IMG/VR virus record: IMGVR_UViG_3300030101_001745
Span: 1 to 64,000 of that record
DNA: 64,000 nt
Reading direction: 5' to 3' (one strand)
DNA from: a virus
In this document: one piece after another, positions 484 through 49,352 of the stretch
Layout of the letters: each line of letters begins with the position of its first letter
Numbering within the stretch: the stretch's first letter is position 1
Translations under genes and position numbers: made by a program
Notes under the pieces: model-generated
Seen by the model: only the letters and a program-made list of their open reading frames with translations
The model's database searches: none
Told to the model about the DNA's origin: nothing

Positions 484-2721
484 TTGTCTTTCATGGATAT
501 TCTAAGGAAAGACACGGAAGATGATGCGGCACGTTTGAGAGAAATGCTAGGTATCAAGGATGATGGTACATATGAACAAAGAACCGAACGTTCCGAAGAA
601 GAGAAACCAGAAGAGGAACCAGAAAAGAAACCGAAGAAAAAGGTTAACCCACTAGCAGAATCGACTCTTGATATTCCTGCATATAGCAGAGATAAAAGAA
701 CAGTGTTTGGTAGAGTTAGATACAAAGACGAGAAGATGCCTCAAGAGACTAGGGAAAGAGAAAAAATTAGTGGACGTAAGATAGAAAGTGCCTATGATAG
801 TTTAGGAAAGGAAATAGATGATTCGTGGCTACAAGTCTGGATTTGGTATTCAGACGATATCATGGGTGGGTTAGATTCTTGGACAAGAAATCTGTTTAAG
901 GCAGAAGAGAGTGCTGATGAAATTGAAGTTGAATTAGGTATAGAGAATCCGTTTAGTAAAAGTATCATGAGTGCAAGTGGTCTTACTTCACGTATGCGAC
1001 CAACTGGAAAGGAATTCAAGGAGGCTGGTGGTCGAGGTAAACTTAGAAGCCAACATCGGAGAGATTTTCAAAAGGTCGCCATGGATTATGACAAGGCAGT
1101 ATCTGAGGCATTGAAGGGAGTTGGCTATCAACCTGCAAGAGAACTCACAGACGCAGAGGTATCAGAACAAGAACGAGAGTCTGCAAGACAGAGAGAGGAA
1201 AGGGGAACAGATGAGGAAGGAAAACCAATTCCCATGCAGATGCCTAAGACTTCCGAGAAATATACACAGGAAGACATGTCAGTAATGAGAACGCTCCTTG
1301 ACAAGTTTGATGACGCGGGGGGAAAGATTCCAGAGATTCTCCTATTCCAAAGAAAGAGAGAACCACACACGATGACAATAGAAGACATCCCAGACGAAGA
1401 AGGTGGTGAACAAGAGAACACTCCGCCAACAACTAGGGAGATAACCGTTCAAGCACCTACTGGAGATGATTTCCGAGTACCCGGCATCAGCACAAGGAGA
1501 CTCAACAAATATGCAAGTGACCTAGGACTGTCCTCTGAGGAAGAGACAAAGAAAGTATCTGATACGCACAACACTACAGAAGAAGGAACCATAGTCGAGA
1601 GGACTTGGACTTTCAACCGATTGGATGCGGATAAGAAACTGCTTGAGATGCTTGGTAAGACACCAAAGGAAAGACAGGACATCAGAGATGCTATGATAAG
1701 AGATGTTCCAGAACCGGGTAAAGACCAACCCAAGCAGAAGATTGGTAGCAAGGTTACTACAAGGACTGGCCCAGTTGCTGGAAAAGTCTCAGAACTCTAT
1801 CAGAGAGTAAAGAACTTCTTCGATGAAGTATTCAACCTCCTATCTGTCGAACAATCACCTACCTTGGAGAGCGAGGTTCTCGATGTTACTGCTGGAATTG
1901 GTGAAAAAGGAAGAAAAGCGGCGAAGGAAAAGAGAGAGCGACAAGACCAACTTGGTAGGACACTAGCAAGAATTCTCAAGAACCATGCAGAAGGTAATGA
2001 AAAAACAGCAGGTGAAGCACTTTCAAAAATAAGCGCAGACAATCTAATTCTCATACAGAAGTTTCTCACTAGAGGAAATAAGAAGTTGGCCCGAACAGCA
2101 AGAGATGCATTGATAGAAAATTACAATGATAGCGAGTGGGATGCTAAGACGAAAAGATGGGTAAATAAGAAAACAGGGGAACCTGCATACAAGACATACG
2201 CAGGTAGGAGTACGCTTGAGTTAATTCCAGAGATACTCAACAAGAACAAGAAGAGAATACTTCCCGATAGAAGGACACAAGGACAGATACTCTCTGAGTT
2301 AGAAGAATTCTCAACTCCAGAATTCAACTTAACTAGGTTCGACCAAGGAGATGGTAAGCCTAGAAGAAAGGAATACACGTTGTCCGAGATAATGAAGGAA
2401 GTAAAGCAATTCATATCGGGAGAAGATAAGCAGATTCCACTACAAGGTAGTGCAGGTAATACTTACAGAAAATTACTATTCAAGGTAATGCAAAAATTGC
2501 GTACTGACTATGATGATGGTAAGACGGGAGAACTAGAATCTGATATTGAAATGATAGAATTCCTATATGCTGTTTTACGACACATAGGGAAGAGTAGAAG
2601 AATCTCTGATGTCGCATTGGAACGTGTGGAAGATATCGCCACTACGGAAGACATACCATTCGACACCGATAGAGAGTTTGATTTACCGCCTCTCTCTCCG
2701 GCTAGTAACGAAGAAGAGTAG
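484..2721 (+). CDS. Large charged hypothetical protein, possible internal head protein
   Basis: ORF 400..2721; likely TTG start at 484 after GAGGTGA, giving N-terminus MSFMDILRK. Confidence 0.75.
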   Translation: MSFMDILRKDTEDDAARLREMLGIKDDGTYEQRTERSEEEKPEEEPEKKPKKKVNPLAESTLDIPAYSRDKRTVFGRVRYKDEKMPQETREREKISGRKIESAYDSLGKEIDDSWLQVWIWYSDDIMGGLDSWTRNLFKAEESADEIEVELGIENPFSKSIMSASGLTSRMRPTGKEFKEAGGRGKLRSQHRRDFQKVAMDYDKAVSEALKGVGYQPARELTDAEVSEQERESARQREERGTDEEGKPIPMQMPKTSEKYTQEDMSVMRTLLDKFDDAGGKIPEILLFQRKREPHTMTIEDIPDEEGGEQENTPPTTREITVQAPTGDDFRVPGISTRRLNKYASDLGLSSEEETKKVSDTHNTTEEGTIVERTWTFNRLDADKKLLEMLGKTPKERQDIRDAMIRDVPEPGKDQPKQKIGSKVTTRTGPVAGKVSELYQRVKNFFDEVFNLLSVEQSPTLESEVLDVTAGIGEKGRKAAKEKRERQDQLGRTLARILKNHAEGNEKTAGEALSKISADNLILIQKFLTRGNKKLARTARDALIENYNDSEWDAKTKRWVNKKTGEPAYKTYAGRSTLELIPEILNKNKKRILPDRRTQGQILSELEEFSTPEFNLTRFDQGDGKPRRKEYTLSEIMKEVKQFISGEDKQIPLQGSAGNTYRKLLFKVMQKLRTDYDDGKTGELESDIEMIEFLYAVLRHIGKSRRISDVALERVEDIATTEDIPFDTDREFDLPPLSPASNEEE

Positions 2722-2729
2722 GTGACAGT

Positions 2730-3077
2730 ATGGGTTGGGAAGATATAATCAAAATACGGGAACTGAATAACTTCAAACAAGCACAAAAATATCTAGAAGG
2801 TGTACAAAAAGATATAGACACCATGATATATTTTCTAAAAGAAGAAAATGGTGGATGGAGAAGGAATAGAAACAAGTTAATGATTCTCAATGATAATTCA
2901 TATATACAACCAGACTTTGAAGACGAAGTAAATCTGCTAATGGAACTGGTAGAGGAAGTTCGTGATAAAATCAAAGAATTAGAAGAGATGCCAGAAATGG
3001 ATGATTTTGCCTTTGCGTTAGAAAATCAACGTGCAGACACAGAAAGCGGATATTATGACCCGCGCTTTGAGGGATAG
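2730..3077 (+). CDS. Hypothetical protein (MGWEDIIK...)
   Basis: ORF with GGTGA RBS, in operon spacing. Confidence 0.7.
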   Translation: MGWEDIIKIRELNNFKQAQKYLEGVQKDIDTMIYFLKEENGGWRRNRNKLMILNDNSYIQPDFEDEVNLLMELVEEVRDKIKELEEMPEMDDFAFALENQRADTESGYYDPRFEG

Positions 3078-3078
3078 T

Positions 3079-3408
3079 ATGAGTTGGCAATCTATTCTAA
3101 AGGCTAGTTCGATACTGGAGAAACTAGACCCGAAGGAAAAGAAGAGAGTCAAGAAACTATTGCAATCATCTCAACCTACTGAGTTCTTTGGAAAGGACAT
3201 GACACAACTAGGTGACTTAATTACAGAGATGAAATCACTGGATATGATGAAGGGCGATGAGAGTCTGAACAAGAAAATAGAATCGTTCGATGAGAAGAAC
3301 CTAGAAATAGTTGCCTCTGCCGCAGAACTAAGGAAGGACTATGAGGTTCTCTACGGTCAGATTAGAAATATGATTTATCCAAAGAAGAAAGGAGATGGAA
3401 AGAAATGA
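3079..3408 (+). CDS. Hypothetical coiled-coil protein (MSWQSILKA...)
   Basis: ORF 3031..3408; ATG at 3079 lies just after the previous stop. Confidence 0.7.
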   Translation: MSWQSILKASSILEKLDPKEKKRVKKLLQSSQPTEFFGKDMTQLGDLITEMKSLDMMKGDESLNKKIESFDEKNLEIVASAAELRKDYEVLYGQIRNMIYPKKKGDGKK

Positions 3409-3632
3409 CAGAAGACAATGAAATGATGCTACTATTGAAAGAATTAGTGAATAAGGTAAAGAGTTTAGAAGAAGCAGTTTATCACAAGGATAATCTGTTG
3501 ATGAAGAGTGGAATGGTCGTGGTTGACAGTCCAACTCCCGCAATGGCTCAAGGTGGAGAGTTACCCACAGGAGATACGATTGCGAAGATGGATTGGGATG
3601 ACATTCACAATATGGTCGAGAGGATGAGTTAG
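3405..3632 (+). CDS. 75-aa protein with scaffold-like C-terminal motif (MDWDDIHNM)
   Basis: ATGA overlap; C-terminus resembles that of the protease-scaffold (LSWGDIHNL). Confidence 0.75.
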   Translation: MTEDNEMMLLLKELVNKVKSLEEAVYHKDNLLMKSGMVVVDSPTPAMAQGGELPTGDTIAKMDWDDIHNMVERMS

Positions 3633-4427
3633 ATGCCAGAGAGAGTAAGCAAAGAAGAGATGCTGGTGAGAGCCGCCATAATCAAAGCAAAGGAAAGCAT
3701 ACAGGAAGCAGAACATCTAGGAATCGTTGAGAATAAAGACCCAGTTATGGGAGAGGAAATCAAGGTCAAAAGACCAAAGAAGAAGCCAGCAGAAGAGAAG
3801 GTAGACAACCCTGTGTCCACAGATGACATCAACTCTGGATATGGTCATGTTGGAAGCGAGGAATACTTCGGCAAGGGATTGGACTCAGTTGCGAAGTTGT
3901 CTCCACAGTTGGAAGGACTCCTAGATGAATTGACTCAAGCAATACAAAGAGTGCAAGGGAAAGATAAGAGAGAACTAGAGGAAAAGATGCATGAGATTCT
4001 AAGTGACATCAAGGGTAGTCCTAGAGTATTAAGTTCCCCACCTTCTATGGATAACGAGTTTAGAAGCGAAGCAGACATAGAAGAGAGATTAGGTAAAGAG
4101 GATGAGGAAGAAGAAGAAGAAAAAATCTATCTCGATAAGTCGGTTGATGAATGGAAGACTCTTTTGAAATATAGAATAGAAGAGCCGATGAACCCGAAGA
4201 CCATGGGTGAAATGATAGGCTGTCCCAAATGCGGTGGTAGCGGAACGTTAGGAGGAAGGCCAGTTAAGACGTATGGTAAAGGTGGTAAGAATCCCGGCGG
4301 AATGCAGACATGTGATTTATGTCGCGGGTTAGGAAAAGTAAGCAGACTTACGGCGCGTCAACATAGTCAAGATGAATACAATAGGAAGATGGGTGACAAT
4401 ACTGGCCCAGCCCCGTCCAAAGCATAA
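3633..4427 (+). CDS. Hypothetical protein with C-terminal DnaJ-type CxxCxGxG zinc finger
   Basis: CPKCGGSG ... CDLCRGLG. Confidence 0.7.
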   Translation: MPERVSKEEMLVRAAIIKAKESIQEAEHLGIVENKDPVMGEEIKVKRPKKKPAEEKVDNPVSTDDINSGYGHVGSEEYFGKGLDSVAKLSPQLEGLLDELTQAIQRVQGKDKRELEEKMHEILSDIKGSPRVLSSPPSMDNEFRSEADIEERLGKEDEEEEEEKIYLDKSVDEWKTLLKYRIEEPMNPKTMGEMIGCPKCGGSGTLGGRPVKTYGKGGKNPGGMQTCDLCRGLGKVSRLTARQHSQDEYNRKMGDNTGPAPSKA

Positions 4428-4439
4428 GGTGGATTCTGT

Positions 4440-7034
4440 GTGGTTGAAACAGGATTGATGTTTGAGAAAGAAACTGAGGATTTGACTAGAGCAATTCTTG
4501 ATTTCTTTGAGAAGACACGATACGCCTATCTTTCAGCCAGAGAAGACAAAGCAGAGTATGAGAAGGAATGGCACGAAGTCATAGATAAAATCAGAGATGA
4601 CTACGACTCGCTAAACAAACTGTCTGAGGAATTGAAGAAGTATCTAGAAGAGAAGGTTCTATTCGATAAGTCTGCTAAAGACCCAACCACTCTAGAAGCC
4701 AAGAAGGTATATGAAGCCGTAAAGGACATGAGGTTTCAGTCCAAGAAGGTTAGCGACCCGTTCTCTAAGAAGTTTGAAGGGGATGTAATAAACACCCTAT
4801 TGGAAAGTGACAGACTCTTCATCGCATTTATCCACTACGCACTACGTTCCCATTCCAATGCCCTTCCCGATAAAATATGGGAAGAACACGACATGGAGGG
4901 AGATGATATCACTCAAGGTGTAATGGGATTGGATTTAGAGATGGATGACATACCTCTCTACATCATAGAACACTATGGGGCAGAAGATGAAGACCAAAGC
5001 AGAATCAAGTCAAAGTTCAAGGGGGCGTTGAAGCAACTTGACAAGATGTTCAATGGTGTATACGAAGATGAACAATGGGATAATCTAGTTGAGTTAGACC
5101 TAGAGAAGAGCGAAGATGAGAAGAGCGAAGATGAGAAATCGGAGATAGATTTCATCATACCAAACAAGCCAATGTACAGGATATTTGAGTTGGATGACTT
5201 GAAGGAGTTGAAAGGATTTACTGGAGAGTGGTTAGTTCAAGAGAAGTATGATGGCATGAGAATACAACTTCACAAGAAGAAGGATAACATCAAGATATAC
5301 TCATACAATAAGAAGGATATTACTGACAAATGTGAGAAGCAAGTCGAGCAACTAAAGAAGAAGCAGTTCGGGGATTGCATACTAGATGGAGAGTTGGTTC
5401 TGTTTGAGGATGATGAACCACTACATCGGGCTTCTACCATTGCTCATGTTTTCAAGAACAAGAAAGGTGGAGAACTAAGAGCGCATGTGTTTGACATAAT
5501 GCAACATGAGGGCAAGGACATTCATGATGAACCATTGAGGGAGAGACATAACGTCCTTCTATACCAATTCAGCCAACACTCATCTGATGCTCTCGCTTTC
5601 CCATCGAAGAAAGATACCAGAGTTGCAGACTCAGTCAAGGAAGTAGGAGAGTATGCGAAAGACATCATGCAACTACCTGCATCGGAAGGAGTGGTAATCA
5701 AGGATATGGAGTCAACATATCCAATTACAAAGAAGAAGAATCCGAAGTGGATTAAGTGGAAAAAGTTCGTTGACTTGGATGTTATTGTACTAGATAAGAA
5801 ATCCACTAACAACGGAATGCATACTTACACTATGGGAGTAGGCCCGATTACTGCGGAAGAGGCTAGGACTTACACTACTACAGACATGGATGATAAGGCA
5901 TATGTTCCAGTTGGTAAGGCACTCAACACCAAGGTAAAGGTAAGTGTCGGAGACATAGTTAGAGTAAAAGTTGATGAAGTTAAGAAGAATAAGAAGGGAT
6001 TCAATCTCTACTCCGCTAAGGTAATAGAGATACCAGAGGTAACTCAATCTGACAAACTATCCACGTTGGAGAGGTTATCTACAAAGACAAAGAAATCCTT
6101 GACTTCAGACGCTATCATTGGAGTTCAACAACTCAGCCCATTCAAAATTACAACCGGATTAAGGGATAAGGACAATGAGAAGAAATCGTACATGATAACG
6201 GATAACGTACATGGTACTGCTGAGATAATTATGAAGAGTGATTTTGATGGTTTTACCATATATGGATTTGAAGGTGATTCACTCATGCAGAAGAACGCAT
6301 TGTACAATCTAGATATGTGGAAGTCTGAACTAGAGAGGATGTTGAAAACCAGAAGGTCAGAATTGAGAATCGCAATCAAGAATGAAATAATAGACATATA
6401 CAAGAACAAACCAACTGCCTTTCCTAAGATAGTTGATTTCGTAAAGAAGGAGTTCCCAGAGACATACGAAGAGGTTTTCCAGAGTAGCGATGAGAATCTG
6501 ATGAGTTGGATGAAGAAACAAGATAGTCTGAGATATCATCATCCCAACAAGTTTACTGCTATACCAGATGTTCTAGAGAAGGATGTCGAGGAATTAAAAA
6601 AAAGAGAAACAGGTTCGTTTAGCATCGTCTTAAGAGAAGATGGTAACTTGGATTTTATCATGAATGTTAATGACAAGAGAAACTTCTGGGAGATTGATAT
6701 AGAAGACACCGAGGACATATACGATTTGTTTGGTAAGTCTGGGAAGTTCCCTGCTATTGTAGGAAAGAAGTTAGGTCAACATAAGAAGGAGATAGACTCT
6801 GGTAAGTTAATACTAGGCGTACAGAAAGAAGGATACCATGAATACAAACTAGAAGGTGATAAGTTTGATACTAGATTCCACGTTAGAGTTGTACCTCTAG
6901 ATGAAAAGCAGACTTGGGTTGTTTGGACAGGTAAAAAACAAGAGATGTTGGATATGAAAGACGATACAAAACTCTGGGATATTACAGAAGATAAATATGC
7001 AGATTTGTCATTTCCAACTAAAAAATCAGATTAA
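4440..7034 (+). CDS. lig: ATP-dependent DNA ligase with N- and C-terminal extensions
   Basis: Motif I QEKYDGMR, III ILDGELV, IIIa HVFDIM, IV SEGVVIKD, V WIKWKK, followed by an OB-fold-like region. Confidence 0.92.
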   Translation: MVETGLMFEKETEDLTRAILDFFEKTRYAYLSAREDKAEYEKEWHEVIDKIRDDYDSLNKLSEELKKYLEEKVLFDKSAKDPTTLEAKKVYEAVKDMRFQSKKVSDPFSKKFEGDVINTLLESDRLFIAFIHYALRSHSNALPDKIWEEHDMEGDDITQGVMGLDLEMDDIPLYIIEHYGAEDEDQSRIKSKFKGALKQLDKMFNGVYEDEQWDNLVELDLEKSEDEKSEDEKSEIDFIIPNKPMYRIFELDDLKELKGFTGEWLVQEKYDGMRIQLHKKKDNIKIYSYNKKDITDKCEKQVEQLKKKQFGDCILDGELVLFEDDEPLHRASTIAHVFKNKKGGELRAHVFDIMQHEGKDIHDEPLRERHNVLLYQFSQHSSDALAFPSKKDTRVADSVKEVGEYAKDIMQLPASEGVVIKDMESTYPITKKKNPKWIKWKKFVDLDVIVLDKKSTNNGMHTYTMGVGPITAEEARTYTTTDMDDKAYVPVGKALNTKVKVSVGDIVRVKVDEVKKNKKGFNLYSAKVIEIPEVTQSDKLSTLERLSTKTKKSLTSDAIIGVQQLSPFKITTGLRDKDNEKKSYMITDNVHGTAEIIMKSDFDGFTIYGFEGDSLMQKNALYNLDMWKSELERMLKTRRSELRIAIKNEIIDIYKNKPTAFPKIVDFVKKEFPETYEEVFQSSDENLMSWMKKQDSLRYHHPNKFTAIPDVLEKDVEELKKRETGSFSIVLREDGNLDFIMNVNDKRNFWEIDIEDTEDIYDLFGKSGKFPAIVGKKLGQHKKEIDSGKLILGVQKEGYHEYKLEGDKFDTRFHVRVVPLDEKQTWVVWTGKKQEMLDMKDDTKLWDITEDKYADLSFPTKKSD
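5103..5144 (+). repeat. In-frame 15-bp tandem repeat (EKSED x2 plus a partial copy) in the ligase linker
   Basis: gagaagagcgaagat twice, then gagaaatcggag. Confidence 0.85.
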
Positions 7035-7055: not shown

Positions 7056-8297
7056 GTGTCGAAAGTGTTAGCATCAGGAGAACTGCTACTAAAAGCAAAT
7101 GAGGAAAGAGAATTTAGTATACTGAAGTCTGACGGATTAGTAATAGGAGGATATGCATCAATAGAAATCGTTGACAAGCAAAACGACCTTATCACACTAG
7201 ATGCATTGGATGAAGCAGTCAAGAAATACATGGGAGAGAAGAAGTACAGAAATGTAATGTCAAACCATTCAAATGTTCAAGTCGGGGAGGTAGTAGAGAA
7301 ATATCGTGATAAAAACGGAGTCTTACACAAAACCAGTGTGGATGACGTTGGATTCTATGTTGTTATCAAAATGAGAGATGACATAGAAAAAGCGAAGGAA
7401 ATTTCTAGAAACATCCGAAAAGGAACACTTAGGTCATTTAGTATAGGAGGGCAAGCGATTTCTAAGAAGCAGAGAACATCTGACGAGTATGGAGAATACA
7501 ACGAAATAGATAAGTTGGAATTACATGAAGTCACAATCTGCGAGAAAGGAATCAACCCAGAAGCGAAATTCGACATCTTGAAACAAGAGTCGGAGGTGAA
7601 AAACAATATGAGTGAAAAACTGGAAAAAGCACTTGAAGAGTTGAACGGCCTAATGAAGCAGGTTGAGCAACTTAACAAGGAAGAAGAAGATGAAAAAATG
7701 GCAAATTCATCGTACGAGAAGGAAATGATGGACGAGAAGAAAGCCGATGAAGGTGATGACATGGAAGAAGAGGATATGGATTCTATGGCATACGCGGATG
7801 ATGATGAGGACAAGGAAGAGAAAGCACTTGACCAAGACACCACAAGAGATTATGAGGCGGGAGAGGAAGTTGTTAGCGGTGGTTCACCGAAAGCAACACC
7901 TGCACCACTCTCAGTCTCTAAGGGTCTAGAGTCGGCTGATTTCTCTACTCTTGACCTTAGTGCCGAGAACGTAGAGAAGGCTTACGAGGCTTTCAAAGCA
8001 GAGCAGTTGGAGAAACTTGCTTACGACAACCTAAGCAAGACCTTCGGTGCTAGGTTCCAAGAGGAACTTGCTTTGAAGAAATCCGAGGCAGAGAGAAGCG
8101 AGTACGATGCTCGCGCAGACGTTGCTGGACTAAAGCAAGAGTTTGCTGAGTTGAGGAAGTCTCTCACTGAGAAGGATGAAGAAATTCGCAAGGCACAGGA
8201 AGTCGCCTTTGACCTACCTGAAAACTTCCCAACGTCAGTTGAGGAAGCATCTGGTCTGTCATGGGGAGATATACACAACCTAGCGAGGGGTGATTAA
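7056..8297 (+). CDS. HK97-type prohead protease fused to an acidic coiled-coil scaffold
   Basis: GYAS..VDKQND, MSNH, LRSFSIGG, LHEVTICEKGINPEA; directly upstream of the MCP. Confidence 0.9.
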   Translation: MSKVLASGELLLKANEEREFSILKSDGLVIGGYASIEIVDKQNDLITLDALDEAVKKYMGEKKYRNVMSNHSNVQVGEVVEKYRDKNGVLHKTSVDDVGFYVVIKMRDDIEKAKEISRNIRKGTLRSFSIGGQAISKKQRTSDEYGEYNEIDKLELHEVTICEKGINPEAKFDILKQESEVKNNMSEKLEKALEELNGLMKQVEQLNKEEEDEKMANSSYEKEMMDEKKADEGDDMEEEDMDSMAYADDDEDKEEKALDQDTTRDYEAGEEVVSGGSPKATPAPLSVSKGLESADFSTLDLSAENVEKAYEAFKAEQLEKLAYDNLSKTFGARFQEELALKKSEAERSEYDARADVAGLKQEFAELRKSLTEKDEEIRKAQEVAFDLPENFPTSVEEASGLSWGDIHNLARGD

Positions 8298-8299
8298 AT

Positions 8300-9721
8300 A
8301 TGACTGGATATATTAAGACAATGAAAGACCTTGAAGCAGCAACCTATGGAATGAGGGGCGCACAGGGCAATGCACTACTAAAGAGCGCAGGTGTAGTCGG
8401 AGGATTTGGAACACCACACGATGCAAGTGGCAGAGACTTTACTGCCGCCACTGGATTGTCCGACCTATACGGAGTCCTATACGGGCAGAAGGTTTGGTCA
8501 ATGCTGAATCAGGAAGTTAACGCACTTTCGATGATGGCAAAGCGACCTTACACTTCCTCTGGTTGGAGGGTTCTAAGGAGCCGACCATCCGGTGGGGCTA
8601 GTGCCGCCTTCGGAGTAGGAAGCGGAGCCGCAGGTTCTGCAACCCCTAGAGCAGACAGACTAGGTGGAGTCACAGAGAACGAGGCTCTAGCAGACATCCC
8701 TGCTCTGTCTCCAGAGTACACCAAACTCTACATCAGCCCTAAGACGATTGCTCATAAGTTTGAGTTCTCAGAGGTTGGTATGGAGATGGCCGCTATTGAT
8801 GACGGTGTAGGTGACATTCGTGCTATCGTTAGAGAGGACATGGGTAAGCACCACGCAGAGGTTCAGAACGTTATGCTTCTGATGCCACTAGAGCGATACT
8901 CGGATGTCGATGGCGCAGTCAACGGAGATGACATTACAGACAGCAACAAGACTGGAGTTATGGAGAACTACACTTCGCTCCACAAGATTGTCTCATCTGC
9001 CGAGGAAATCGGACAGATGTACCTAGACAACATAACGGCTAGGAGCGAGAACGATGGCGGAGTAACGGCAATTTCCCTTGCAGTAAGGAAGATTTTCGGA
9101 ACAGACAGAGAAGTTACGTCTGCCGCCGATGGTGGTGACGCAGGAAGCGTTGACGATGTTGTGATAAACAACACTGGAGACAGGACTTACCTAGATGCAG
9201 AGGTTGACTTCGGTACATCATACGCATCTGCTAGGGTTCTAACTCTATCAATCCTTAACGACATGATTAGGAAGATAAGGCAGAACGGCGGAAACCCGAA
9301 GGTGATGATTACTGGATACGATACTATCCAGCACATCTCTGACCTACTACAGAGCCAAGAGAGATTCATGGACAGGAAGGAGATTGTACCTACCCACAAC
9401 GGAGTTCGCGGGCCTAAAGGTGCTGAAGTCGGTTTCCGTGTAGCAACCTACTACGACATACCCATCATCCCAGCAAAGGACATGCCATCCACAACTGCTT
9501 CGTCAGTTACCAACGGATTGAGCGACATCCTTCTTCTGGACACGGACCATCTGTGGATGAGTGTGATGAAGCCTACTCAATACTTTGAGGATGGTATCGC
9601 TAACGGCAACCCATTCGGTGTTGACAGGCTTGGTAACACAGGTCTGTACAGAACCATGGGCGAGACTGCTTGCTCGTTCTTCAAGGGACAAGGTAAGATA
9701 ACCAACCTAAAGTCTGCGTGA
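8300..9721 (+). CDS. Major capsid protein (HK97 fold)
   Basis: 473 aa, follows the protease; PKTIAHKFEFSE, long backbone helix, YYDIPIIP and LLLDTDHL P-domain-like strands. Confidence 0.88.
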   Translation: MTGYIKTMKDLEAATYGMRGAQGNALLKSAGVVGGFGTPHDASGRDFTAATGLSDLYGVLYGQKVWSMLNQEVNALSMMAKRPYTSSGWRVLRSRPSGGASAAFGVGSGAAGSATPRADRLGGVTENEALADIPALSPEYTKLYISPKTIAHKFEFSEVGMEMAAIDDGVGDIRAIVREDMGKHHAEVQNVMLLMPLERYSDVDGAVNGDDITDSNKTGVMENYTSLHKIVSSAEEIGQMYLDNITARSENDGGVTAISLAVRKIFGTDREVTSAADGGDAGSVDDVVINNTGDRTYLDAEVDFGTSYASARVLTLSILNDMIRKIRQNGGNPKVMITGYDTIQHISDLLQSQERFMDRKEIVPTHNGVRGPKGAEVGFRVATYYDIPIIPAKDMPSTTASSVTNGLSDILLLDTDHLWMSVMKPTQYFEDGIANGNPFGVDRLGNTGLYRTMGETACSFFKGQGKITNLKSA

Positions 9722-10129: not shown

Positions 10130-10171
10130 GTAGTGGCCCTCTTCCTAGAGCATCAGGAAGGGGGTCGCTAC
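10130..10171 (+). promoter_or_regulatory. 17-bp RNA stem-loop after the capsid genes (stabiliser, attenuator or processing site)
   Basis: gtagtggccctcttcct / agagcatc / aggaagggggtcgctac; 14 Watson-Crick pairs plus 3 G.U pairs, no mismatches. Confidence 0.7.
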
Positions 10172-10192
10172 CCTCTATTACTAGGTGAGAAT

Positions 10193-10714
10193 ATGGCTAA
10201 GGTTAGACTAACTAACAGACCATTGAATGGTCGGGCAATGAGAATAAATTTTGGAACAGATAGGTACGTTGTAGGATACAAACAAGACGTAGACATACCT
10301 CTGAGATATGCTAGTTCGCTTCTTAGAGATGACAACTACACAGTAGTATTAGATTCAAGTGATGAGAAGGACTTGGCTACTATGTCAAAGTACAAGAGAA
10401 GCCATCTAATTGGACACTATGATGGATTGTCCGAGGATGATGATGGCCCGACCATGGTTAAGAAACTGTTCGGGAAGAGCAAGTCCTTCTTTGGTAGTAA
10501 GGCCAAGCCGGAGAAACTACCAGAGGCTAAGGAAGAGATTCATCCTCAAATGGAGAAGCCAGTCAAGGAAGAAAAGGAAGTCCTTGCCCCTTTGCCACCA
10601 AATCTAGAGAAACTCACCAACAAGCAACTCAAGGCTCTACTCGATGAGAGAGGAATCAAGGCAGACGGTAAGAAGTCGATTCTAATTGATGCGCTATTGG
10701 AGGCAGAAGGATGA
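10193..10714 (+). CDS. Protein with C-terminal SAP/HeH-like nucleic-acid-binding motif
   Basis: LEKLTNKQLKALLDERGIKADGKKSILIDALLE; ATG at 10193 after GGTGAG. Confidence 0.7.
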   Translation: MAKVRLTNRPLNGRAMRINFGTDRYVVGYKQDVDIPLRYASSLLRDDNYTVVLDSSDEKDLATMSKYKRSHLIGHYDGLSEDDDGPTMVKKLFGKSKSFFGSKAKPEKLPEAKEEIHPQMEKPVKEEKEVLAPLPPNLEKLTNKQLKALLDERGIKADGKKSILIDALLEAEG

Positions 10715-11034: not shown

Positions 11035-11442
11035 ATGCCAAGCCTAGAAACAGACACCCGCATGATTATGGCGATACTGTTCGTAGGTTCGATGTGTGGT
11101 GTGAATGTATTCGCATACTCACAGTACGGAATATCCTTCCCATATGGCCCGGAGGCACATGCCATCTTATTTGGCATTAGTACGGTAGGTGGGATACTTG
11201 TTGTCAAAGTGGCATTCGATGTGTTCCTTAGCGATATGATTGAGGAAACCCTACTTAGGAGAGCCATTGATGGCTATTGGGGTAGAAAGGAAAGAGAAGA
11301 GCAGAACAAGAGAAGAGTACGAGAGTCGATGGCTCGCTTCCAACAGAACTACACTCCTTACGGAGATTCTACTCTTCCAACGGTGAAGGCCGAAGAACCA
11401 GAGACAATGACTCCTGCGTTCTTAACACTTGAAAACCAGTAG
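11035..11442 (+). CDS. Two-TM membrane protein with charged helical C-tail (holin-like topology)
   Basis: Hydrophobic segments MIMAILFVGSMCGVNVFAY and AILFGISTVGGILVVKVAFDVFL. Confidence 0.75.
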   Translation: MPSLETDTRMIMAILFVGSMCGVNVFAYSQYGISFPYGPEAHAILFGISTVGGILVVKVAFDVFLSDMIEETLLRRAIDGYWGRKEREEQNKRRVRESMARFQQNYTPYGDSTLPTVKAEEPETMTPAFLTLENQ

Positions 11443-11457: not shown

Positions 11458-11682
11458 ATGGTCAGCGAAATCCTATTTGGAATGGATGAGTCTACCCTCG
11501 CATATGACTTACAAAGAGCGCACTCTGCTGATATCTGGTTTCTAAGGGCTAGGTTCTACCTATGGGGTGGAATCTTCTGTCTGGGTAGTTTTGCACTTGG
11601 ACAACTCCTAGCGGTTTATGGAATCAATACGCTATCAATGACATGGAATGGTCTAGTAGACTTCTGGAATCATCTGTGGTGA
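11458..11682 (+). CDS. Small membrane protein (1 TM plus Trp-rich amphipathic C-terminal helix)
   Basis: FYLWGGIFCLGSFALGQLLAVYGI; TWNGLVDFWNHLW. Confidence 0.7.
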   Translation: MVSEILFGMDESTLAYDLQRAHSADIWFLRARFYLWGGIFCLGSFALGQLLAVYGINTLSMTWNGLVDFWNHLW

Positions 11683-11686
11683 TATA

Positions 11687-12358
11687 TTGTCAGTAATGGC
11701 AGGTTTTGCCATATTGATAGTCGAGGGACTCAACAAACTATACCAACGTGTACATGCAATCAATTTCGGTATATATGGGGCTACCAGAGCAGGTAAGACC
11801 ACTATGAATCACCAGTTGAGAACGAGAGGTGATGTTCCAGATATTCGACATAGGACAGAAGGATTGCAACGTGCAAGCAGGAAGTACGTCAAACTAGACG
11901 GTGATGCACATACTGTGAAAACGGCTGATGTAGGTGGACAAACGGTATACTGGAATGACTGGTTGAACGATATGAGGAATCGAAGAGTCAAGTACATCAT
12001 CTTCATGATGGATGATAGACACATGGACAAGCATTATGATATCGAACAACAACTGTGTTGGACTTTCCTAGTGGATACAATTTGCAGTACAGAATGGAAC
12101 ATCAATGGTAAGAGAAAGAAGAAAAGAGAATCAGACTATCCAGTAGCAGTAGGAATATGGGCTAACAAGTATGACTTGTGGAAAGACAAGTATGAACATG
12201 ATGGGCCAATAGAACAGCATCCTATTTTCTCTGCATTCAGAGATGGCATTCAAAGATTGAACGACAAAGGAATACCTTGCTACAAATACATAGTAAGTGC
12301 CAAGACAGACTCTGAGATGGTCTACAGAGGTGTCCTAACCATGATAAAGGACTACTAG
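11687..12358 (+). CDS. Arf-like small GTPase (Ras superfamily)
   Basis: G1 GATRAGKT, G2 RTEG, G3 DVGGQ, IIFMMD, G4 ANKYD, G5 SAK; hydrophobic/amphipathic N-terminus; TTG start after GGTGA. Confidence 0.9.
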   Translation: MSVMAGFAILIVEGLNKLYQRVHAINFGIYGATRAGKTTMNHQLRTRGDVPDIRHRTEGLQRASRKYVKLDGDAHTVKTADVGGQTVYWNDWLNDMRNRRVKYIIFMMDDRHMDKHYDIEQQLCWTFLVDTICSTEWNINGKRKKKRESDYPVAVGIWANKYDLWKDKYEHDGPIEQHPIFSAFRDGIQRLNDKGIPCYKYIVSAKTDSEMVYRGVLTMIKDY

Positions 12359-12370: not shown

Positions 12371-13045
12371 ATGTCAATGTCATTCCAACCACCAAGTTTG
12401 ATAGGTTCTTCGACAACGAATGTAACCAATACGGCATTCATGGATAGAATGGAACATGCTAGAAGCGCGGGTTCCATAATGCAATATGAATACAAGAGCG
12501 TCAAGCCAAAGAAACAATTGAAAGAGATAATCAAGGTACTAACACCTGAGAAGAAAACATTCCTGAAAATACCATACAGATTCAAGTACAACATCAAAGA
12601 TAGATGTGTAGTGTGCGGTACACACAAAGTATGGGATGCAAGTGATAATCTTCGACCACCTCTACCATTACACAAGGTTCGCAAGGGATACCCAATGCGA
12701 GGAACCTACTGTGAGAAACATGCAGGTATACACAGGCAATACGAGATGCTAGAGCAACAGGTACTAGCAGAGGAACATGGATTGTCATTCAGCGCATACA
12801 TACCTAAGACCCCATCTATGCAGACTCTGAATCCATTGTCCTCTGGCCCTTTGACTACCTTGAAAGAAACTGATATCATGTCACTTTCTTCTGTCGGTTG
12901 GACAATTAAACCACCTACGGCAGAACAAGAAAACATCGAAGAAGAATTGTTTCGGTTGCTAATAGAGCAAAATACAATTAACCAACGAGTGAAAACGTTA
13001 TTGACCGAGGGTGCGAAGGTCACCATTAAGGAGAGTGATGCGTGA
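12371..13045 (+). CDS. Putative Zn-binding protein with C-terminal coiled coil
   Basis: CVVCG ... YCEKH; C-terminal heptad-like helix. Confidence 0.7.
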   Translation: MSMSFQPPSLIGSSTTNVTNTAFMDRMEHARSAGSIMQYEYKSVKPKKQLKEIIKVLTPEKKTFLKIPYRFKYNIKDRCVVCGTHKVWDASDNLRPPLPLHKVRKGYPMRGTYCEKHAGIHRQYEMLEQQVLAEEHGLSFSAYIPKTPSMQTLNPLSSGPLTTLKETDIMSLSSVGWTIKPPTAEQENIEEELFRLLIEQNTINQRVKTLLTEGAKVTIKESDA

Positions 13046-18555: not shown

Positions 18556-20109
18556 GTGAGTAATGAGGTATTTATTGGCGCAGGTGCAATGACTACATTA
18601 GCCCCGGAGTGTGACATTTTTCTACATCAATGTGACATCTCTGGAGCAGTAGCAACATTAGATGGGGCTGTTGATGATGACTTTCTATTAGTTCCCGGTC
18701 TATACAAGGGATGTATTGCTAAAATTCACAATGGTACGGCGGCAGATACCCAATATCTTGTGATAAAGGACAACTCTTCTACGACTCTCACATTCGATGA
18801 GACTCTAGTAAAGAATGGTAGCAACCATGCTAACTTGGTCATTCTAGCGTTTGGCGCACCAGTACCGGGGCCAAAGAATGGAAACAAGACAACTCTACTA
18901 TCAGACCATTGGCTAGGACTAGTCAATACATTCAATCCGCCTTCGGTAGAAGTCGAGATGAAGCAATTGAATCTAGCAACTGGAAGCACACGCAACTTCG
19001 GATTCCAGTTCAAGGGCAATGAGACAGTAAGCGGTGGTTCTATTGACATTGCATTGAACAATGGTTCTTGGCTATACTACGCATTAGGTAAGTATGCAAT
19101 AGATACCACAATGGAAACTTCTACGCACATACATTCAACTAACGAAGGAACATACGTCAATCCGGGCGATGAGAGCATTGTCCGAGCAATAGGAGGGGCT
19201 TTCTATCCGCCTATACACACTAGCCTAACTCCAGCATATAGAGAAGGCACAGATACCACAGACCCAGATTTTCATCTTGTTCAAGCATCAAGCATTAGTA
19301 ATGGGGTAGAAAGTAAGTTGTACGAATACACATTCACAGAGGCAAACGGTTCGGCTCTTCCATCCTTCGCAATAGAGATGTGCTACGCCAAGGAAGGTAG
19401 AACTGCAACAGAGGTCGTTGATGATAACACCAACAACTCAAACATGTATGCAAGGGTCTTCACAGGAAACCAAGTAAACTCCCTTGCAATCAACTTTGAG
19501 GAAGGACAGGAAGTCAAGGCTTCCGTGGATTTCGTTACTAGGAGAGCGTTCGATGTTCCCGGTGCAAGTGCAAGTACCACCTTCGATGGTCACATACCAA
19601 ACAGAGGGAAACTACAGGCAAGCGAGTTGCTTAACTTTGGTACAGATGCAGAGAACCAACCCTTCATGTTCTCATCTGGGGCAATCAAGATATTCGGGCA
19701 GACCTTTGCCAGAGTAAAGAATGGTAACATTACCATCAACAATAACATAACCCCTCACAGATTCATAGGTAATTACAGTCGGGAAGTGACATCAATGCAC
19801 GTACCCGGACAGAGAACCTATGATGCATCATTTACACTATTAATCACAGACACCAAGGTATGGGATGAGTTGAGAACAGAGACAGAGCATTCCGGTGGAG
19901 TAATCGAGGTTTCCTTTGTCAAGGATTCTGGCGAACTTCTCAAGTTGCAACTCAATGATTACTTGGTACAGAACGTAACAGTTCCCCTACCCGATGACAA
20001 AGGTGCAGTTGAAGTAGAGTTGGCAGTATCTGCTAGAAGCCTAGGTACAGTCCAATACAAAGGAAGATGGCATGTATTGTCAATCGGAGGTGTTGCTACG
20101 AGCGAGTAA
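18556..20109 (+). CDS. Major tail tube protein with extra domains
   Basis: LPSFAIE, RVFTGNQVNSLAINFEEGQEVKASVDF, GQRTYDASFTL patterns typical of siphovirus tube proteins; followed by chaperone and TMP. Confidence 0.75.
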   Translation: MSNEVFIGAGAMTTLAPECDIFLHQCDISGAVATLDGAVDDDFLLVPGLYKGCIAKIHNGTAADTQYLVIKDNSSTTLTFDETLVKNGSNHANLVILAFGAPVPGPKNGNKTTLLSDHWLGLVNTFNPPSVEVEMKQLNLATGSTRNFGFQFKGNETVSGGSIDIALNNGSWLYYALGKYAIDTTMETSTHIHSTNEGTYVNPGDESIVRAIGGAFYPPIHTSLTPAYREGTDTTDPDFHLVQASSISNGVESKLYEYTFTEANGSALPSFAIEMCYAKEGRTATEVVDDNTNNSNMYARVFTGNQVNSLAINFEEGQEVKASVDFVTRRAFDVPGASASTTFDGHIPNRGKLQASELLNFGTDAENQPFMFSSGAIKIFGQTFARVKNGNITINNNITPHRFIGNYSREVTSMHVPGQRTYDASFTLLITDTKVWDELRTETEHSGGVIEVSFVKDSGELLKLQLNDYLVQNVTVPLPDDKGAVEVELAVSARSLGTVQYKGRWHVLSIGGVATSE

Positions 20110-25902: not shown

Positions 25903-28900
25903 ATGGGTGGAGTAAGTAAGGGCAAGGCAATATTCCCACTCAACGTAGGTGTGAAGGATACTGACATCACAGATGACAACGATGCATTTGACTATGCTGG
26001 ACACGCCGCAAAGAAGAGTGAAGCATACCTAAACGTATCAGTAAATCCTACACTAGTGCAGAACAACCTACAATACGAGAACTCTCAAAACGGGTCATCT
26101 TTGAAGTCGTCTGCTAACTTCATGGAAATAAGAGACACCTCTCACGGTGGTTCAATTAGCAATGACTCTACAAGTAGGATTGGTAATAGGATATATCCTA
26201 GCAATGCTACTTTGACTGACCATGCTCTAAACAGAGATGAGACTCATTCATTCAAAGTGAAGGTGTATGATTCGCAACTCACTAATTCCGAGACAAATAG
26301 AAAGTTCGTTTATTCTACCAGTGACTATCCTGCTACAGAGGAAGTCGGATTAGACATAGAGAACTATGATTACTTTATCTTGTTAAATCCAGATACAGTA
26401 GTTATGGGTACAGATGCAATCAGACCACACTTTGCGAAGGTAACTAGAATAATCTCCTTTGATGAGTTTGGAGATGGATTAGAATTCTCTCCTGCATATC
26501 CTACAGAAATAGGAATCAATACGAAGTTTGAGATTTACAAAGGACCAGCAAAGACAGCGACTGACATTGTTGCTGTGAGTTATGGTCTGAGAGGTGATGC
26601 TCTAAGCAATACGAATAAACACGATAGAGTATCACATGCTAGTAGGCCGACTTGGTATTTCTACGATGATAGATTAGATGAGAAAGACCAACTAGATTAC
26701 ATGACGAAATACAATCTAACTCATCTACGTTATTGGAGTGCTTTCACTACTGTATCAATGAATGCAGTAACATCACATGCCCAGTACGCTATAGGTAGTG
26801 ACTCGATAAAGTTCACAGTAACAGATGTGGCAAACAGACAGAAACTCTTGCCGGGTATGTCAATCTTCGACAATAGCGGGGTTTACCTTGGAAACATCAA
26901 GACCTTAGATGACACTAACAATCTAAGATTAAAATTAGATTATGCGAGAGTGCTGATAAACCAGAACAACTCACAGTTCAATGTAAAGATTGGTAAGACT
27001 ATACAGAACGTAATATTCAGAACCGAAGGAAAGTTCAACAATACAATACACAGTCTAGGAAAGGACAGACTAGAGGCAACTCTAGTAGATGCGAATAAGA
27101 CATCTGATGACTCCACTTCTAGTGATTTCTACAAATGGGAAACTGCGTTTCCTAAGATGCACAGGCATACCGCAAACTTGGATTCTACTTCTACTCTCAA
27201 ATTAGATGGTGACCTAACTGGACCGGGCAAGTACCTAACTTTTGAGAAAGCCAACTACAAGAATAATCAAATTCCATTAATTACACATGCACTATTGAAT
27301 CAACCTAGGAATAAGATGAGTCAACTCGCTCAATTCAAAGTAATGGACAATAGCGGATTGCAACACCTCAAGATGAAGGAAGAAACCGATTTGATTCTAG
27401 AGAGGAACATATACAATGGTAGTATGCAATTTATGAAGTTCCACGGCAAGGCATCCCGACATTCATCAAACACATCCACAATCGTCTTGTCGGACATACA
27501 AAAGAACACAGACCTAAGAGCCGTATTGGGTGCTGGCCCGAATGCAAATACAATAGTGGAGATAGATGGATACTACTATGTCGTCAATGTAGTAAACGCT
27601 CAATCTAATGGAGAGCAATCATTCACAATCAAGAACAAGAAAACAATTGCGGCAAACACATGGACAGGTAGTTCTGTAGCAGAAAACTTCTCATCAAAGG
27701 AAATGAAAGTAGCACCATACACAGGCGTATTGAATACTACATTAGAACCAGATACAGAATTTGACCTAGATTCATCTAGATTATCAATGTCAGATGTTAC
27801 GATAGATGAGAATGAATCTAAGTTATACAACTCTAGATTGGTTATCGGTACGCATAACAGGCACGATAATAGAATACAATATGGAGATAAGGATAACAAG
27901 TATCTGAAGATACAGGATGATAGTCGGGTCTTCTACCAACGTTCTAATGAAAACAAGAGCAGGTTCTATTACTACAACAGTAGTTATTCAATTAGCGATG
28001 TTGCCTTTACTGGCGTAATAGAGGATATTACTAGTGCCTCGGAGAATGGTCTAACTACATACAATGTGGTTGGTAGAGATGAAACTTCCAAACTCCTATC
28101 ACAGACAGTAAGCAAGAACACTACATTCATGGAAGATGTTATCCATACTTCATTACCACCTATTCTAAACGCAACTGCGATTACTGGTATAAGCAGTCTA
28201 AGCGTGACAACAGGTAGTGCTTCTGTGACATTCTCTGGCACTCCTTCTACTACTCCTGCGAAGTACGGCCTCATACTTAACCAAGCAGGGGAGTTAATTG
28301 GGGAGGTAAAACAATACTCATCTGGAACCATAACCTTGTATGATGGAGCATTCTCCACACCAACTACGACATCATCATTGAAGTATTATCATCCATACAG
28401 TCCTACATGGGTGAACTATGTTACAGGCACTAAGGCACTAGGAAGTAATGAGCAACACAATACTGGTACTGCGTCTTTTACCTCGATAAGCGAGAAAGCA
28501 ATTGATTTCAACTCTGGGCTATCTCTAACATTAGATGGAAATAATTTCGTTTATACAGTAATAAGAGGCTCATCCAATACTGGTTCCTATCTAAAAGATG
28601 GAACATTAGGATATGACATATCATCACCAAAGGCAATTTCTACCAATGATGCTATCTTCGCATTCAATGCAGGTAATGAAAACGGAGTGACATTGGATAA
28701 GATAGATATCGCTTCAATAAGCAAGGAAACCTTTGATGTGGTGAAGGTAAACGAGAAGGATGAATCTGAAACCAGATTGTCTCTATCTCCTATATTCCCC
28801 ATACTACTAGGAAGGGTGGACATAAATTCCTCAGATACAAGAGGAAACTGCAATCTGTATCTAGTCAACAACAATGCAGATACAGGTGGATTCATCCATA

Positions 28901-33288: not shown

Positions 33289-33620
33289 TGATAGTAGATG
33301 AAGGAAAAGAAGTATTGGCGACATATATCGCAAGCAATTTTACAACGGTAAAGATAGGTAATGGTGGAGATGATACTGCTGGTTCTCAGACAGATTTAGA
33401 TTCGTTTGTAGCCACTAAGTCTGCTACACCATCAAGGATAGGAACACAACTAGTTTGGACTGCATCTTTTACAGGTACAGACATTGGTACTCAAGGTGTT
33501 TCAGAATTAGGAATTTTCGATGGTAACGATAAACTCTTGAGCCGAGTCACCTTCACGAATACTGGAGTAGTGCCTACTACAGACACGGTGACGTTCACAA
33601 TTAGACTGGAGGTAGATTGA
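33288..33620 (+). CDS. Tail-fibre attachment / collar-like protein
   Basis: IVDEGKEVLA..IGNGG..ELGIFD..LLSRVTF pattern; precedes the fibre gene. Confidence 0.6.
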   Translation: MIVDEGKEVLATYIASNFTTVKIGNGGDDTAGSQTDLDSFVATKSATPSRIGTQLVWTASFTGTDIGTQGVSELGIFDGNDKLLSRVTFTNTGVVPTTDTVTFTIRLEVD

Positions 33621-48298: not shown

Positions 48299-48306
48299 GT
48301 GATTGT

Positions 48307-48621
48307 ATGGTTGAACATGGGATAGAGGATGAAGAAACACCGAGCAATGTGACAGTACATTACAATGTAGGGCCGGGGCATCCAGAGTATGATGAGAACG
48401 GTCATATTAGTTTTGCTTGGGAAGACCTTAGAGCAAGGAGAGCCATGCGCTTGAAGAAAGTAGACATCTATCAAGGTGTATTAGTTTACAATACTCTAAC
48501 AGAAGAACAACAAAATGAGTTGGCTACATACAGACAGGCACTTCTAGATTTGCCAAGTGACTACGATGACCCATTTGAGGCAATGGCAAACCTACCAACA
48601 ATACCATCTTGGCTAAATTAA
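48307..48621 (+). CDS. Tail fibre assembly chaperone
   Basis: WEDLRARR..L..VD..YRQALLDLP..P..PSW. Confidence 0.8.
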   Translation: MVEHGIEDEETPSNVTVHYNVGPGHPEYDENGHISFAWEDLRARRAMRLKKVDIYQGVLVYNTLTEEQQNELATYRQALLDLPSDYDDPFEAMANLPTIPSWLN

Positions 48622-48728
48622 CTCGCAATCCCACCATCGAAAGCGATTCAATCTTACTTTCTTCAACGGTAAATCCAAAATGCAACCCCATTGTAAATTA
48701 GTTTTCTAGATGACCCTTATAACCCACC

Positions 48729-48890
48729 CTAGAGAGAACGATTTTTGGCCCACTCCATGGCGAGGTAATCCAACCTGCCCAACCACGAAATTAGACCACT
48801 TGCAAACACAATCATGAAAGGAGTGTAGAAACTCAGAGGTATTTCAAAAGACAAGTCATGTAAGAAACTCATGTCCAGAATTTCAATCAT
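48729..48890 (-). CDS. 53-aa putative membrane microprotein (MIEILDMSFL...)
   Basis: Hand-translated; ATGA overlap with the upstream micro-ORF. Confidence 0.5.
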   Translation of the reverse strand: MIEILDMSFLHDLSFEIPLSFYTPFMIVFASGLISWLGRLDYLAMEWAKNRSL

Positions 48891-49009
48891 GGCTCTTCAC
48901 TCCTAAAATATTTGGCTATTTCTTTGAATTCATTTACTAGAAGAAACGAAGCGCAAAAAAGAAAGAAGCCCATTAGGATATAGACGGGAAGAAAGGGTGA
49001 GTATTCCAT
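48887..49009 (-). CDS. 40-aa single-TM microprotein (MEYSPFLPVYILMGFFLFCASFLLV...)
   Basis: Hand-translated; starts 3 nt after the previous stop. Confidence 0.55.
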   Translation of the reverse strand: MEYSPFLPVYILMGFFLFCASFLLVNEFKEIAKYFRSEEP

Positions 49010-49012
49010 AGT

Positions 49013-49350: not shown

Positions 49351-49352
49351 GC

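Follow-up and report, generated by a model that had tools for sequence, protein, structure and literature searches.

A virus-specific Arf-like small GTPase encoded in a five-gene membrane module of magroviruses

Two groups of archaeal GTPases carrying an N-terminal amphipathic helix are among the closest described systems to the gene analysed here. For the ArfR proteins, the nucleotide-switched N-terminal amphipathic helix, coupled to a two-residue register shift of the interswitch, is regarded by the authors who described them as the defining feature, and outside Asgard archaea ArfR has been reported in Korarchaeia alone (bioRxiv 10.1101/2024.02.28.582541). ArvA (OapA), a GTPase of Euryarchaeota and DPANN archaea, has been shown to drive vesicle formation in Haloferax, and it combines an N-terminal amphipathic helix with a Cys-rich operon partner (PMC10927574). 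We report here a small GTPase encoded at 11687-12358, on the + strand, of the IMG/VR virus record IMGVR_UViG_3300030101_001745, a linear genome of 101,546 bp that is 100% complete according to CheckV. The window, i.e. the whole stretch of DNA that was analysed, corresponds to the first 64 kb of this genome.

Marine Group II archaea are abundant in the ocean. Magroviruses, the tailed viruses that have been assigned to these Euryarchaeota, carry a ligase among their structural genes and also encode a split family-B DNA polymerase (PolB) and replication factor C (RFC) (PMC5434244). As judged from its sequence, the genome containing the window is of the magrovirus type (about 100 kb, linear, with an HK97-type structural module and archaeal-type replisome genes), since its gene content and layout match this published description. 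How tailed archaeal viruses exit from their hosts is unknown (PMC10791045).

What is new here is a virus-specific variant of the Arf-like small GTPases, lying in an undescribed five-gene membrane module whose other members encode two small predicted membrane proteins, a Cys/His protein (protein D) and a Gln-rich protein. We assign a probability of about 55% to the reading that this GTPase is a functional GTP-binding switch, founding a virus-specific family on the Arf/G-alpha side and working with its dedicated membrane module in a late membrane event. Taken separately, it is highly probable that the protein is a genuine GTP switch that associates with membranes and forms part of a dedicated viral module. 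The present analysis adds the Q/E counts at the catalytic position, the comparison of selection between genes, the assignment of the nearest whole-domain relatives to a Chloroflexota family, the regional similarity to ArvA and the negative results in the host order.

Motifs, helix and conservation of the GTPase

Close relatives of the GTPase, forming clade 1 together with the window protein, were found on at least 337 IMG/VR contigs. A second GTPase clade (clade 2), only about 30% identical, was found on at least 257 more, giving at least 594 contigs together. The features of the window protein are as follows.

11687-12358, + strand: cassette gene 3, small GTPase of 223 aa
11687-11752, + strand: N-terminal helix, residues 1-22, hydrophobic over 1-12 and amphipathic over 10-22; F7 and E13 invariant
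11777-11800, + strand: G1/P-loop GATRAGKT, residues 31-38; G31, G36 and K37 invariant in all clades
11852-11863, + strand: switch I/G2, R56-T57-E-G59; R56-T57-x-G59 invariant in clade 1
11927-11962, + strand: G3 DVGG(Q/E) and switch II YWxxW, residues 81-92; D81 and G84 invariant, W92 near-invariant
12092-12142, + strand: polybasic insert, an extra beta-hairpin between alpha3 and beta5, residues 136-152, K-rich, with predicted strands at 136-139 and 142-145
12164-12175, + strand: G4 NKYD, guanine specificity, residues 160-163
12296-12304, + strand: G5 SAK, residues 204-206; invariant in clade 1 (83/83)

Translation of the window recovered the open reading frame (ORF) and each of the motifs quoted in the original prediction, with G3 reading D81-V-G-G-Q85, followed by YWNDW (residues 88-92), IIFMMD (104-109), WANKYDL (158-164) and VYRGV (212-216). 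The start codon is TTG and is preceded, at a distance of 4 nt, by GGTGA. Initiation at the in-frame ATG at 11696 would shorten the protein to 220 aa, but many homologues present ATG or GTG at the first position, favouring the longer form.

The identification of the product as a viral small GTPase was confirmed. All five G motifs are present and conserved, the AlphaFold2 (AF2) model exhibits a six-stranded G domain, and structural alignment gave Z scores of 10-13 to many small GTPases. Both GxxxxGK[ST] and NKxD are intact in the 165 copies that were fetched, and the switch-I 'RT' in 162 of them. In clade 2, G5 takes the form MAT[KR] in 69 of 82 copies. Residue 85 behaves differently: the catalytic Gln, which had been advanced as an argument for Arf, is present in the window protein as Q85, but across the family the position alternates between Q and E and is sometimes H, D or A, so that the argument falls. 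The clade-1 loci carry 43 Q and 40 E, the protein matches 38 Q and 82 E, and clade 2 57 Q, 17 E, 3 D and 2 H, with A in some family members.

The AF2 model (pLDDT 69 overall) consists of the G domain, an N-terminal helix at residues 2-22 and an extra hairpin at 136-145. Residues 10-22 of the helix have a hydrophobic moment (muH) of 0.56-0.68, and the maximal Kyte-Doolittle hydropathy (KD19) is 1.33, below the transmembrane (TM) level of about 1.6. The helix is conserved in all viral clades and aligns with the amphipathic helix of the Asgard ArfR protein GerdArfR1 and with the N-terminus of ArvA. The membrane-type N-terminal helix proposed earlier is thus retained as a predicted feature, hydrophobic and then amphipathic. 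Within the polybasic insert, clade 1 shows no variation at K146 or P152, and the basic run is retained in clade 2.

A word-indexed protein search retrieved 317 GTPase homologues at E ≤ 0.01, all from marine metagenomes, with at least 60% identity among the 120 listed. In comparison with 78 relatives, the GTPase showed a median non-synonymous divergence (pN) of 0.139 at a saturated synonymous divergence (pS) of 0.82, the lowest non-synonymous divergence of the seven genes compared. For unsaturated pairs, dN/dS was about 0.05 for the GTPase compared to 0.14 for the major capsid protein (MCP), and the median identity to relatives was 76% and 69%, respectively. The GTPase gene is genuine, is under very strong purifying selection and is more conserved than the capsid protein.

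No tblastn match to the GTPase was obtained in the INPHARED phage collection, and a scan of 185,579 species genomes yielded six loci in all. Four of the six encode a viral-type GTPase: one lies in an archaeal metagenome-assembled genome (MAG) and three on separate contigs (L161, L162 and L163) of one alphaproteobacterial 'Maricaulis sp.' MAG, each with a different version of the gene. None of 300 other genomes from the phylum of this MAG carries the gene, and the three are almost certainly contigs of magroviruses that were wrongly binned with the 'Maricaulis' MAG. In the three species-genome loci whose downstream genes were inspected (L161, L162 and L164), cassette genes are present downstream. 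The order to which the archaeal MAG with the cassette contig belongs is the likely host order, and in 61 of its genomes we found neither a cellular orthologue of the GTPase nor OapB (ArvB).

Relation to Arf, to bacterial Arf-like proteins and to ArvA

The original prediction had credited the protein with a complete Arf-family signature. This does not hold, as the Pfam Arf score is below the cut-off, the weak matches are scattered over families and the Gln is variable. Against Pfam, Arf (PF00025) was the top match of the window GTPase, at 16.6 bits for a cut-off of 22.3; G-alpha (PF00503) reached 14.5 bits (cut-off 48.8) and SRPRB 13 bits (cut-off 25). NCBIfam returned the generic small_GTP model alone, at 18.4 bits and below its cut-off. 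Across 39 members of the family, the weak Pfam matches (E ≤ 1) were to SRPRB in 37, MMR_HSR1 in 37, Ras in 30, Roc in 29, Arf in 15 and G-alpha in 14. A six-frame search of the whole genome with PF00025 gave no match at E ≤ 1, and PHROGs contained no match for the GTPase or its neighbours.

A profile of the family, run with HMMER against 1.8 billion representative proteins, retrieved 82 clusters at E ≤ 1e-3, none of them canonical Arf, ArfR, eukaryotic, Ras or ArvA. Because this search gave no canonical Arf, Ras or ArvA, and with the window protein and nearly all its relatives below the Pfam thresholds, the sequence evidence indicates that the GTPase family is a distinct, virus-specific one. 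The more distant profile matches were further viral clades (P0130-P0161) and a group scoring above the Pfam Arf threshold, which proved to be bacterial; a pattern scan of P0130 gave no match. Outside the viral clusters, the ESM-Atlas neighbours were prokaryotic G-domain clusters, partly PF00025-positive.

Comparison with solved structures bears on whether the viral protein could be a bona fide member of the Arf family, i.e. of the clade uniting ArfR with eukaryotic Arf, Arl, Sar and SRbeta, occurring outside Asgard archaea and endowed with the interswitch toggle. Such a member would inform Arf origins. The profile of the two viral clades found GerdArfR1 (8OUN) as its best match in the PDB (E 1.4e-6, 31 bits), in an alignment that spans the N-helix to beta4 and pairs W92 with the switch-II Trp of GerdArfR1. 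Arl8A came next (2e-4, 24 bits), then H/K-Ras and Rab33 at about 1e-3 (Ras 22 bits). Arf6, Arl2 and Sar1 are also among the top structural matches: exhaustive alignment with VIA-align gave Z scores of 13.1 for SRbeta and for the Rag-like Loki RagO, 12.9 for Arf6 (18-20% identity), 12.7 for Gi/Gs, 12.7 for Arl2 and 11.9 for Sar1, with Rab, Rho and Ras at 11-12. Nevertheless, we consider true membership of the Arf family quite unlikely. The Pfam Arf match, though the top one, is sub-threshold and extends to 15 of the 39 members versus 37 for SRPRB and for MMR_HSR1, the 1.8 billion proteins held no Arf, ArfR or eukaryotic protein at E ≤ 1e-3, the catalytic Gln is not conserved, the G5 SAK is not of the Arf type, and the closest relatives are bacterial, ArfR outside Asgard archaea being reported from Korarchaeia alone. 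Of the Arf-like affinity claimed initially, the part that stands is the similarity to ArfR and then Arl8 among solved proteins, while the Pfam score below the Arf cut-off and the tied structural matches do not bear out membership.

With the proteins of the Arf family (GerdArfR1, 8OUN/8OUM; Arl8; Arf1/6; Sar1; SRbeta), the viral GTPase shares an N-terminal membrane-type helix directly before the G domain, a G1 of the form xAGKTT, DxGGQ, the switch-II Trp, hhFhhD and NKxD. It differs from them by a polybasic hairpin insert of 15 residues, by the lack of a Gly2 myristoylation site, by R-T instead of P-T in G2 and SAK (MAT[KR] in clade 2) in G5, and in that its gene belongs to a euryarchaeal virus, whereas theirs are found in Asgard archaea and eukaryotes. 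Taken together, it is likely that the GTPase lies on the Arf/G-alpha-like side of the extended Ras superfamily, in an Arf-like superclade, without being a canonical Arf.

Other GTPase families were considered and rejected. The G-alpha Ras-like domain shares with the viral protein DVGGQ, a long N-terminal helix and a weak Pfam match; the 223-aa clade-1 protein has no helical-domain insert, and its Pfam G-alpha score is 14.5 bits against the required 48.8. The top Foldseek matches, to G-alpha (E about 3e-7), were discounted as global alignments with TM-scores of about 0.45-0.5 and root-mean-square deviations of 8-10 Å, driven by the long N-helix. SRbeta was set aside because the N-terminal segment is no true TM anchor (KD19 1.33, below about 1.6), the SRPRB score is 13 bits against 25, and its Z of 13.1 is tied with other families. 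The G3 motif of MglA lacks the conserved Asp (PMC4316618). The viral protein had been set apart from MglA, with no roadblock/MglB partner seen nearby, and both statements proved correct: the G3 Asp, D81, is invariant and the 101.5-kb genome contains no Robl_LC7 match anywhere, on which grounds MglA is excluded. The mimivirus Rab (PDB 5XC5) is likewise a small GTPase of a large dsDNA virus, with a structural Z of 12.0; it is a recognisable Rab from eukaryotic hosts, whereas the magrovirus GTPase belongs to an archaeal virus, has no orthologue in the likely host order and possesses its own partner cassette.

The nearest whole-domain relatives are an uncharacterised bacterial family, mostly from Chloroflexota/Anaerolineae (e.g. 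P0355, P0376 and P0418), which bears the NCBI name 'ADP-ribosylation factor-like protein'. Alignment of the viral and bacterial profiles with hhalign covered the whole G domain (99.6%, E 1.7e-24, 184 columns), and the bacterial profile retrieved the viral copies at E 1.5e-20. Against the PDB, the bacterial profile matched mini-Gq (2.6e-15), Arl3 (4e-11), G-alpha (about 1e-9) and Arf1 (about 1e-8). The two families share an N-terminal hydrophobic segment, the motifs GKTT, DxGG[E/Q]xxxWxxW, IIFMxDH and NKxDxW, and a variable residue after GG. The bacterial proteins differ in being cellular, on chromosomal contigs of up to 2.2 Mb, in passing the Pfam Arf threshold, in a G2 of the form PTxG (RTxG in the viral proteins) and in the absence of the HPIF/GIP block. 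The bacterial family was not found in IMG/VR, and when 300 genomes from the same phylum as the 'Maricaulis' MAG were searched with the bacterial profile, the mis-binned viral contigs were all that matched.

These results extend Arf-like small GTPases with N-terminal membrane helices to viruses of Euryarchaeota and link them to an unstudied bacterial family. They are relevant to the spread of helix-mediated GTPase membrane switches outside eukaryotes and Asgard archaea. That the protein bears directly on how the eukaryotic Arf family arose, as had been suggested, is not supported by the present evidence, the nearest relatives found being bacterial and not Asgard.

The two remaining loci of the species-genome scan were partial matches in Aenigmatarchaeota, and these are genuine ArvA(OapA)-OapB-OapC operons (Pfam OapB 2.3e-18, OapC 6.5e-24). 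They raise the alternative that the viral GTPase is a derivative of ArvA through which the virus drives membrane budding or vesicle formation in hosts devoid of ArvABC. In BLASTP, the window GTPase is 32% identical over G1-G3 (37 bits) to the DPANN ArvA of such a verified operon, and hhalign aligned the viral family with ArvA, N-helix included (97.6%, E 2.8e-12). The surroundings of the P-loop are nearly identical (GIYGATxVGKTTL), both proteins have an N-terminal amphipathic helix and a Cys-containing (in ArvA, Cys-rich) neighbour, and OapB was not found in the 61 genomes of the likely host order. In a quick tree, ArvA, the bacterial family and the viral clades each formed a monophyletic group, with ArvA adjoining the viral clades and the order of the groups unresolved; as it had no outgroup and a very long ArvA branch, this tree was given no weight for placement. 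Descent from ArvA nonetheless appears unlikely. The hhalign similarity covers 73 N-terminal columns only, from the N-helix to G3, and leaves the C-terminal half unaligned. Over its whole domain ArvA is Era/Der-like, its profile retrieving Era/Der/TrmE from the PDB whereas the viral profile retrieves ArfR, Arl8 and Ras, and its G3 is DMPG instead of DVGG. The operons also differ: the viral cassette codes for two TM proteins together with a Gln-rich one and lacks OapB (PF09846) and OapC (PF09845), its neighbours have no Pfam match, and hhalign gave a probability of at most 1.3% for protein D against OapC or OapB. Membership in the ArvA family was therefore rejected, as whole-domain similarity fails, the operon partners differ and ArvA is not among the matches at E ≤ 1e-3. 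We regard ArvA as the nearest functional analogue among archaeal proteins, and as a possible partial relative, but not as the family of the viral GTPase.

The five-gene cassette and its proposed role

The GTPase gene is the third of five consecutive genes, the four others being:

11035-11442, + strand: cassette gene 1, two TM helices and a charged C-terminal tail, 135 aa, KD19 peaks of 2.13 and 1.92
11458-11682, + strand: cassette gene 2, single TM, 74 aa, KD19 1.73
12371-13045, + strand: cassette gene 4, Cys/His protein D, 224 aa
13042-13764, + strand: cassette gene 5, Gln/Asn/Met-rich protein, 240 aa

In 80 close loci of clade 1 the order (2-TM, 1-TM, GTPase, Cys/His, Gln/Asn-rich) is fixed at constant offsets. 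Gene 1 is syntenic in 78 clade-1 loci (about 77 being eligible), gene 2 lies at the same offset in 80 of 80, and gene 5 is present in all 71 eligible loci. Gene 1 has no Pfam or PHROG match.

For clade 2, a phmmer search with the window proteins within 8 kb on either side matched the GTPase, plus two marginal matches to protein D only. Direct reading of one clade-2 locus, L084, revealed the same five-gene order with analogous proteins, and L164 carries a third variant of the cassette next to a thermosome gene. The analogues are located as follows.

L084, 7173-7739: 2-TM protein with charged tail
L084, 7746-7988: 1-TM protein
L084, 9686-10309: Q/M/G-rich protein
L164, 3818-4606: 2-TM protein with charged tail
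L164, 4625-4909: 1-TM protein
L164, 6433-7179: Q/M/G-rich protein

As read from these sequences, the cassette linkage is conserved across three deeply divergent magrovirus clades. An extra TM protein of 85 aa is encoded at 10314-10571 of L084, right after the Gln-rich gene, so the second-clade cassette may have six members. In L164, the thermosome (chaperonin) gene occupies 2271-3821, immediately upstream of the 2-TM gene; published magrovirus chaperonins sit in the replicative cluster.

Protein D is one family across the clades, with C79, G83, G106 and T112-Y113-C114 invariant and H117 near-invariant, and the core of its AF2 model (residues 41-135) has a pLDDT of 83-91. Fold searches with this model gave a best Z of 4.3 (VIA-wide) and nothing at E ≤ 0.001 (Foldseek), with no roadblock/longin or ArfGAP fold among the matches. 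The idea of protein D as an ArfGAP was rejected: the window protein contains the string C-x-x-H-A-G-I-H-R, reminiscent of the ArfGAP zinc-finger/Arg-finger motif, but neither the Arg nor the second Cys is kept from clade to clade. The genome has no Pfam ArfGap match. A predicted complex of the GTPase, protein D and GTP/Mg, run without controls, scored 0.00, which speaks neither for nor against binding.

The position of the cassette, contiguous and co-oriented with the late structural genes, is shown by its neighbours on the same strand.

7056-8297, + strand: prohead protease
8300-9721, + strand: MCP
18556-20109, + strand: tail tube

This location between the capsid module and the tail genes could indicate that the five proteins are virion-assembly factors or packaged proteins, for instance a GTP-dependent chaperone or checkpoint of head-tail joining, or internal proteins that are ejected. 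Internal or ejection proteins commonly include Gln/Met/Gly-rich and small hydrophobic ones. The alternative is unlikely in our view, as two of the five proteins are predicted to be integral to the membrane and the GTPase has a membrane-type N-helix. Moreover, clade 2 and L164 keep the cassette order in different flanks (large ORFs of unknown function or the thermosome gene), so that the linkage to head and tail genes is not conserved, and no PHROG match to structural families was obtained. A host-takeover, superinfection-exclusion or anti-defence membrane switch, unrelated to release, would also fit the predicted membrane location and the switch nature of the GTPase, and the small membrane neighbours could serve to block the entry of other viruses. 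We judge this very improbable: the cassette is co-oriented with the late structural genes and not with the early/replication arm, and the GTPase and its cassette are near-universal, extremely conserved core genes, which is atypical since exclusion and anti-defence genes usually vary.

For a GTP switch acting in a late membrane event, the following sequence of steps can be proposed. By analogy with Arf, Sar1, ArfR and ArvA, the GTP-bound protein would insert its N-terminal helix, aided by the basic loop, into the host membrane from the cytoplasmic side. At the membrane, the GTPase would meet, assemble with or control the two small membrane proteins, and would thereby organise or time a late event, most likely one in which the host envelope is opened or remodelled so that virions can leave. 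Hydrolysis may be slow, or may rely on help from a partner or from Arg56, the invariant switch-I residue that adjoins the G2 Thr and is a candidate cis element, because the catalytic position varies between Q, E and H. The role in egress or membrane remodelling, which is drawn from analogy, is put forward tentatively. More doubtful is the complete version, in which the cassette would be a self-contained GTP-timed membrane machine that opens or remodels the Marine Group II envelope for virion release, with the Cys/His protein as regulator and the Gln-rich protein as polymerising or effector protein.

Several observations weigh against a membrane switch of the Arf/G-alpha side. The place between head and tail genes is the usual one for assembly or connector proteins, and a morphogenetic role is equally compatible with it. 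The sequence links to Arf proper are weak, reaching 31 bits at best, and the structural ranks are tied among several families at Z 12-13. The catalytic Gln position is not conserved in the viral family, the switch I region of the AF2 model has a pLDDT below 50, and none of the four partner proteins gave a family or fold match in Pfam, PHROGs or the structure searches.

To our knowledge, a lysis system has yet to be described for any tailed virus of archaea. The GTPase cassette offers a concrete, cloneable handle on the question of egress, because the GTPase surpasses the capsid protein in conservation, is linked to genes for membrane proteins in all the clades examined and goes unmentioned in the magrovirus literature searched, a search that left out supplementary tables. 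If the egress reading were true, the cassette would define a novel type of viral exit machinery, and archaeal viruses would have in it their first functional small-GTPase module.

Other features of the virus genome

The genome encodes the prohead protease, an HK97/SU10-type MCP and the tail tube, with a DNA ligase among the head genes, and carries the split family-B polymerase, RFC and a PD-(D/E)XK nuclease on its opposite arm. The ligase, at 4440-7034 (+), is an ATP-dependent enzyme of 864 aa with long N- and C-terminal extensions, located just upstream of the prohead protease, a known magrovirus peculiarity. The polymerase, at 54486-57543 (-), is divided into two ORFs of 559 aa and 304 aa, about 460 bp apart, and matches the 'split DNAP' of magrovirus group B1. 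Between the capsid genes and the cassette, 10133-10714 (+) encodes a protein of 193 aa that ends with a SAP DNA-binding motif (Pfam 1.8e-7). The tail region contains two giant ORFs, at 25903-33288 (2461 aa) and 33617-44038 (3473 aa), both on the + strand and presumably coding for fibres or adhesins. The GC and AT skews change sign at about 48000-49700, where the long + strand late block meets the - strand replication block.

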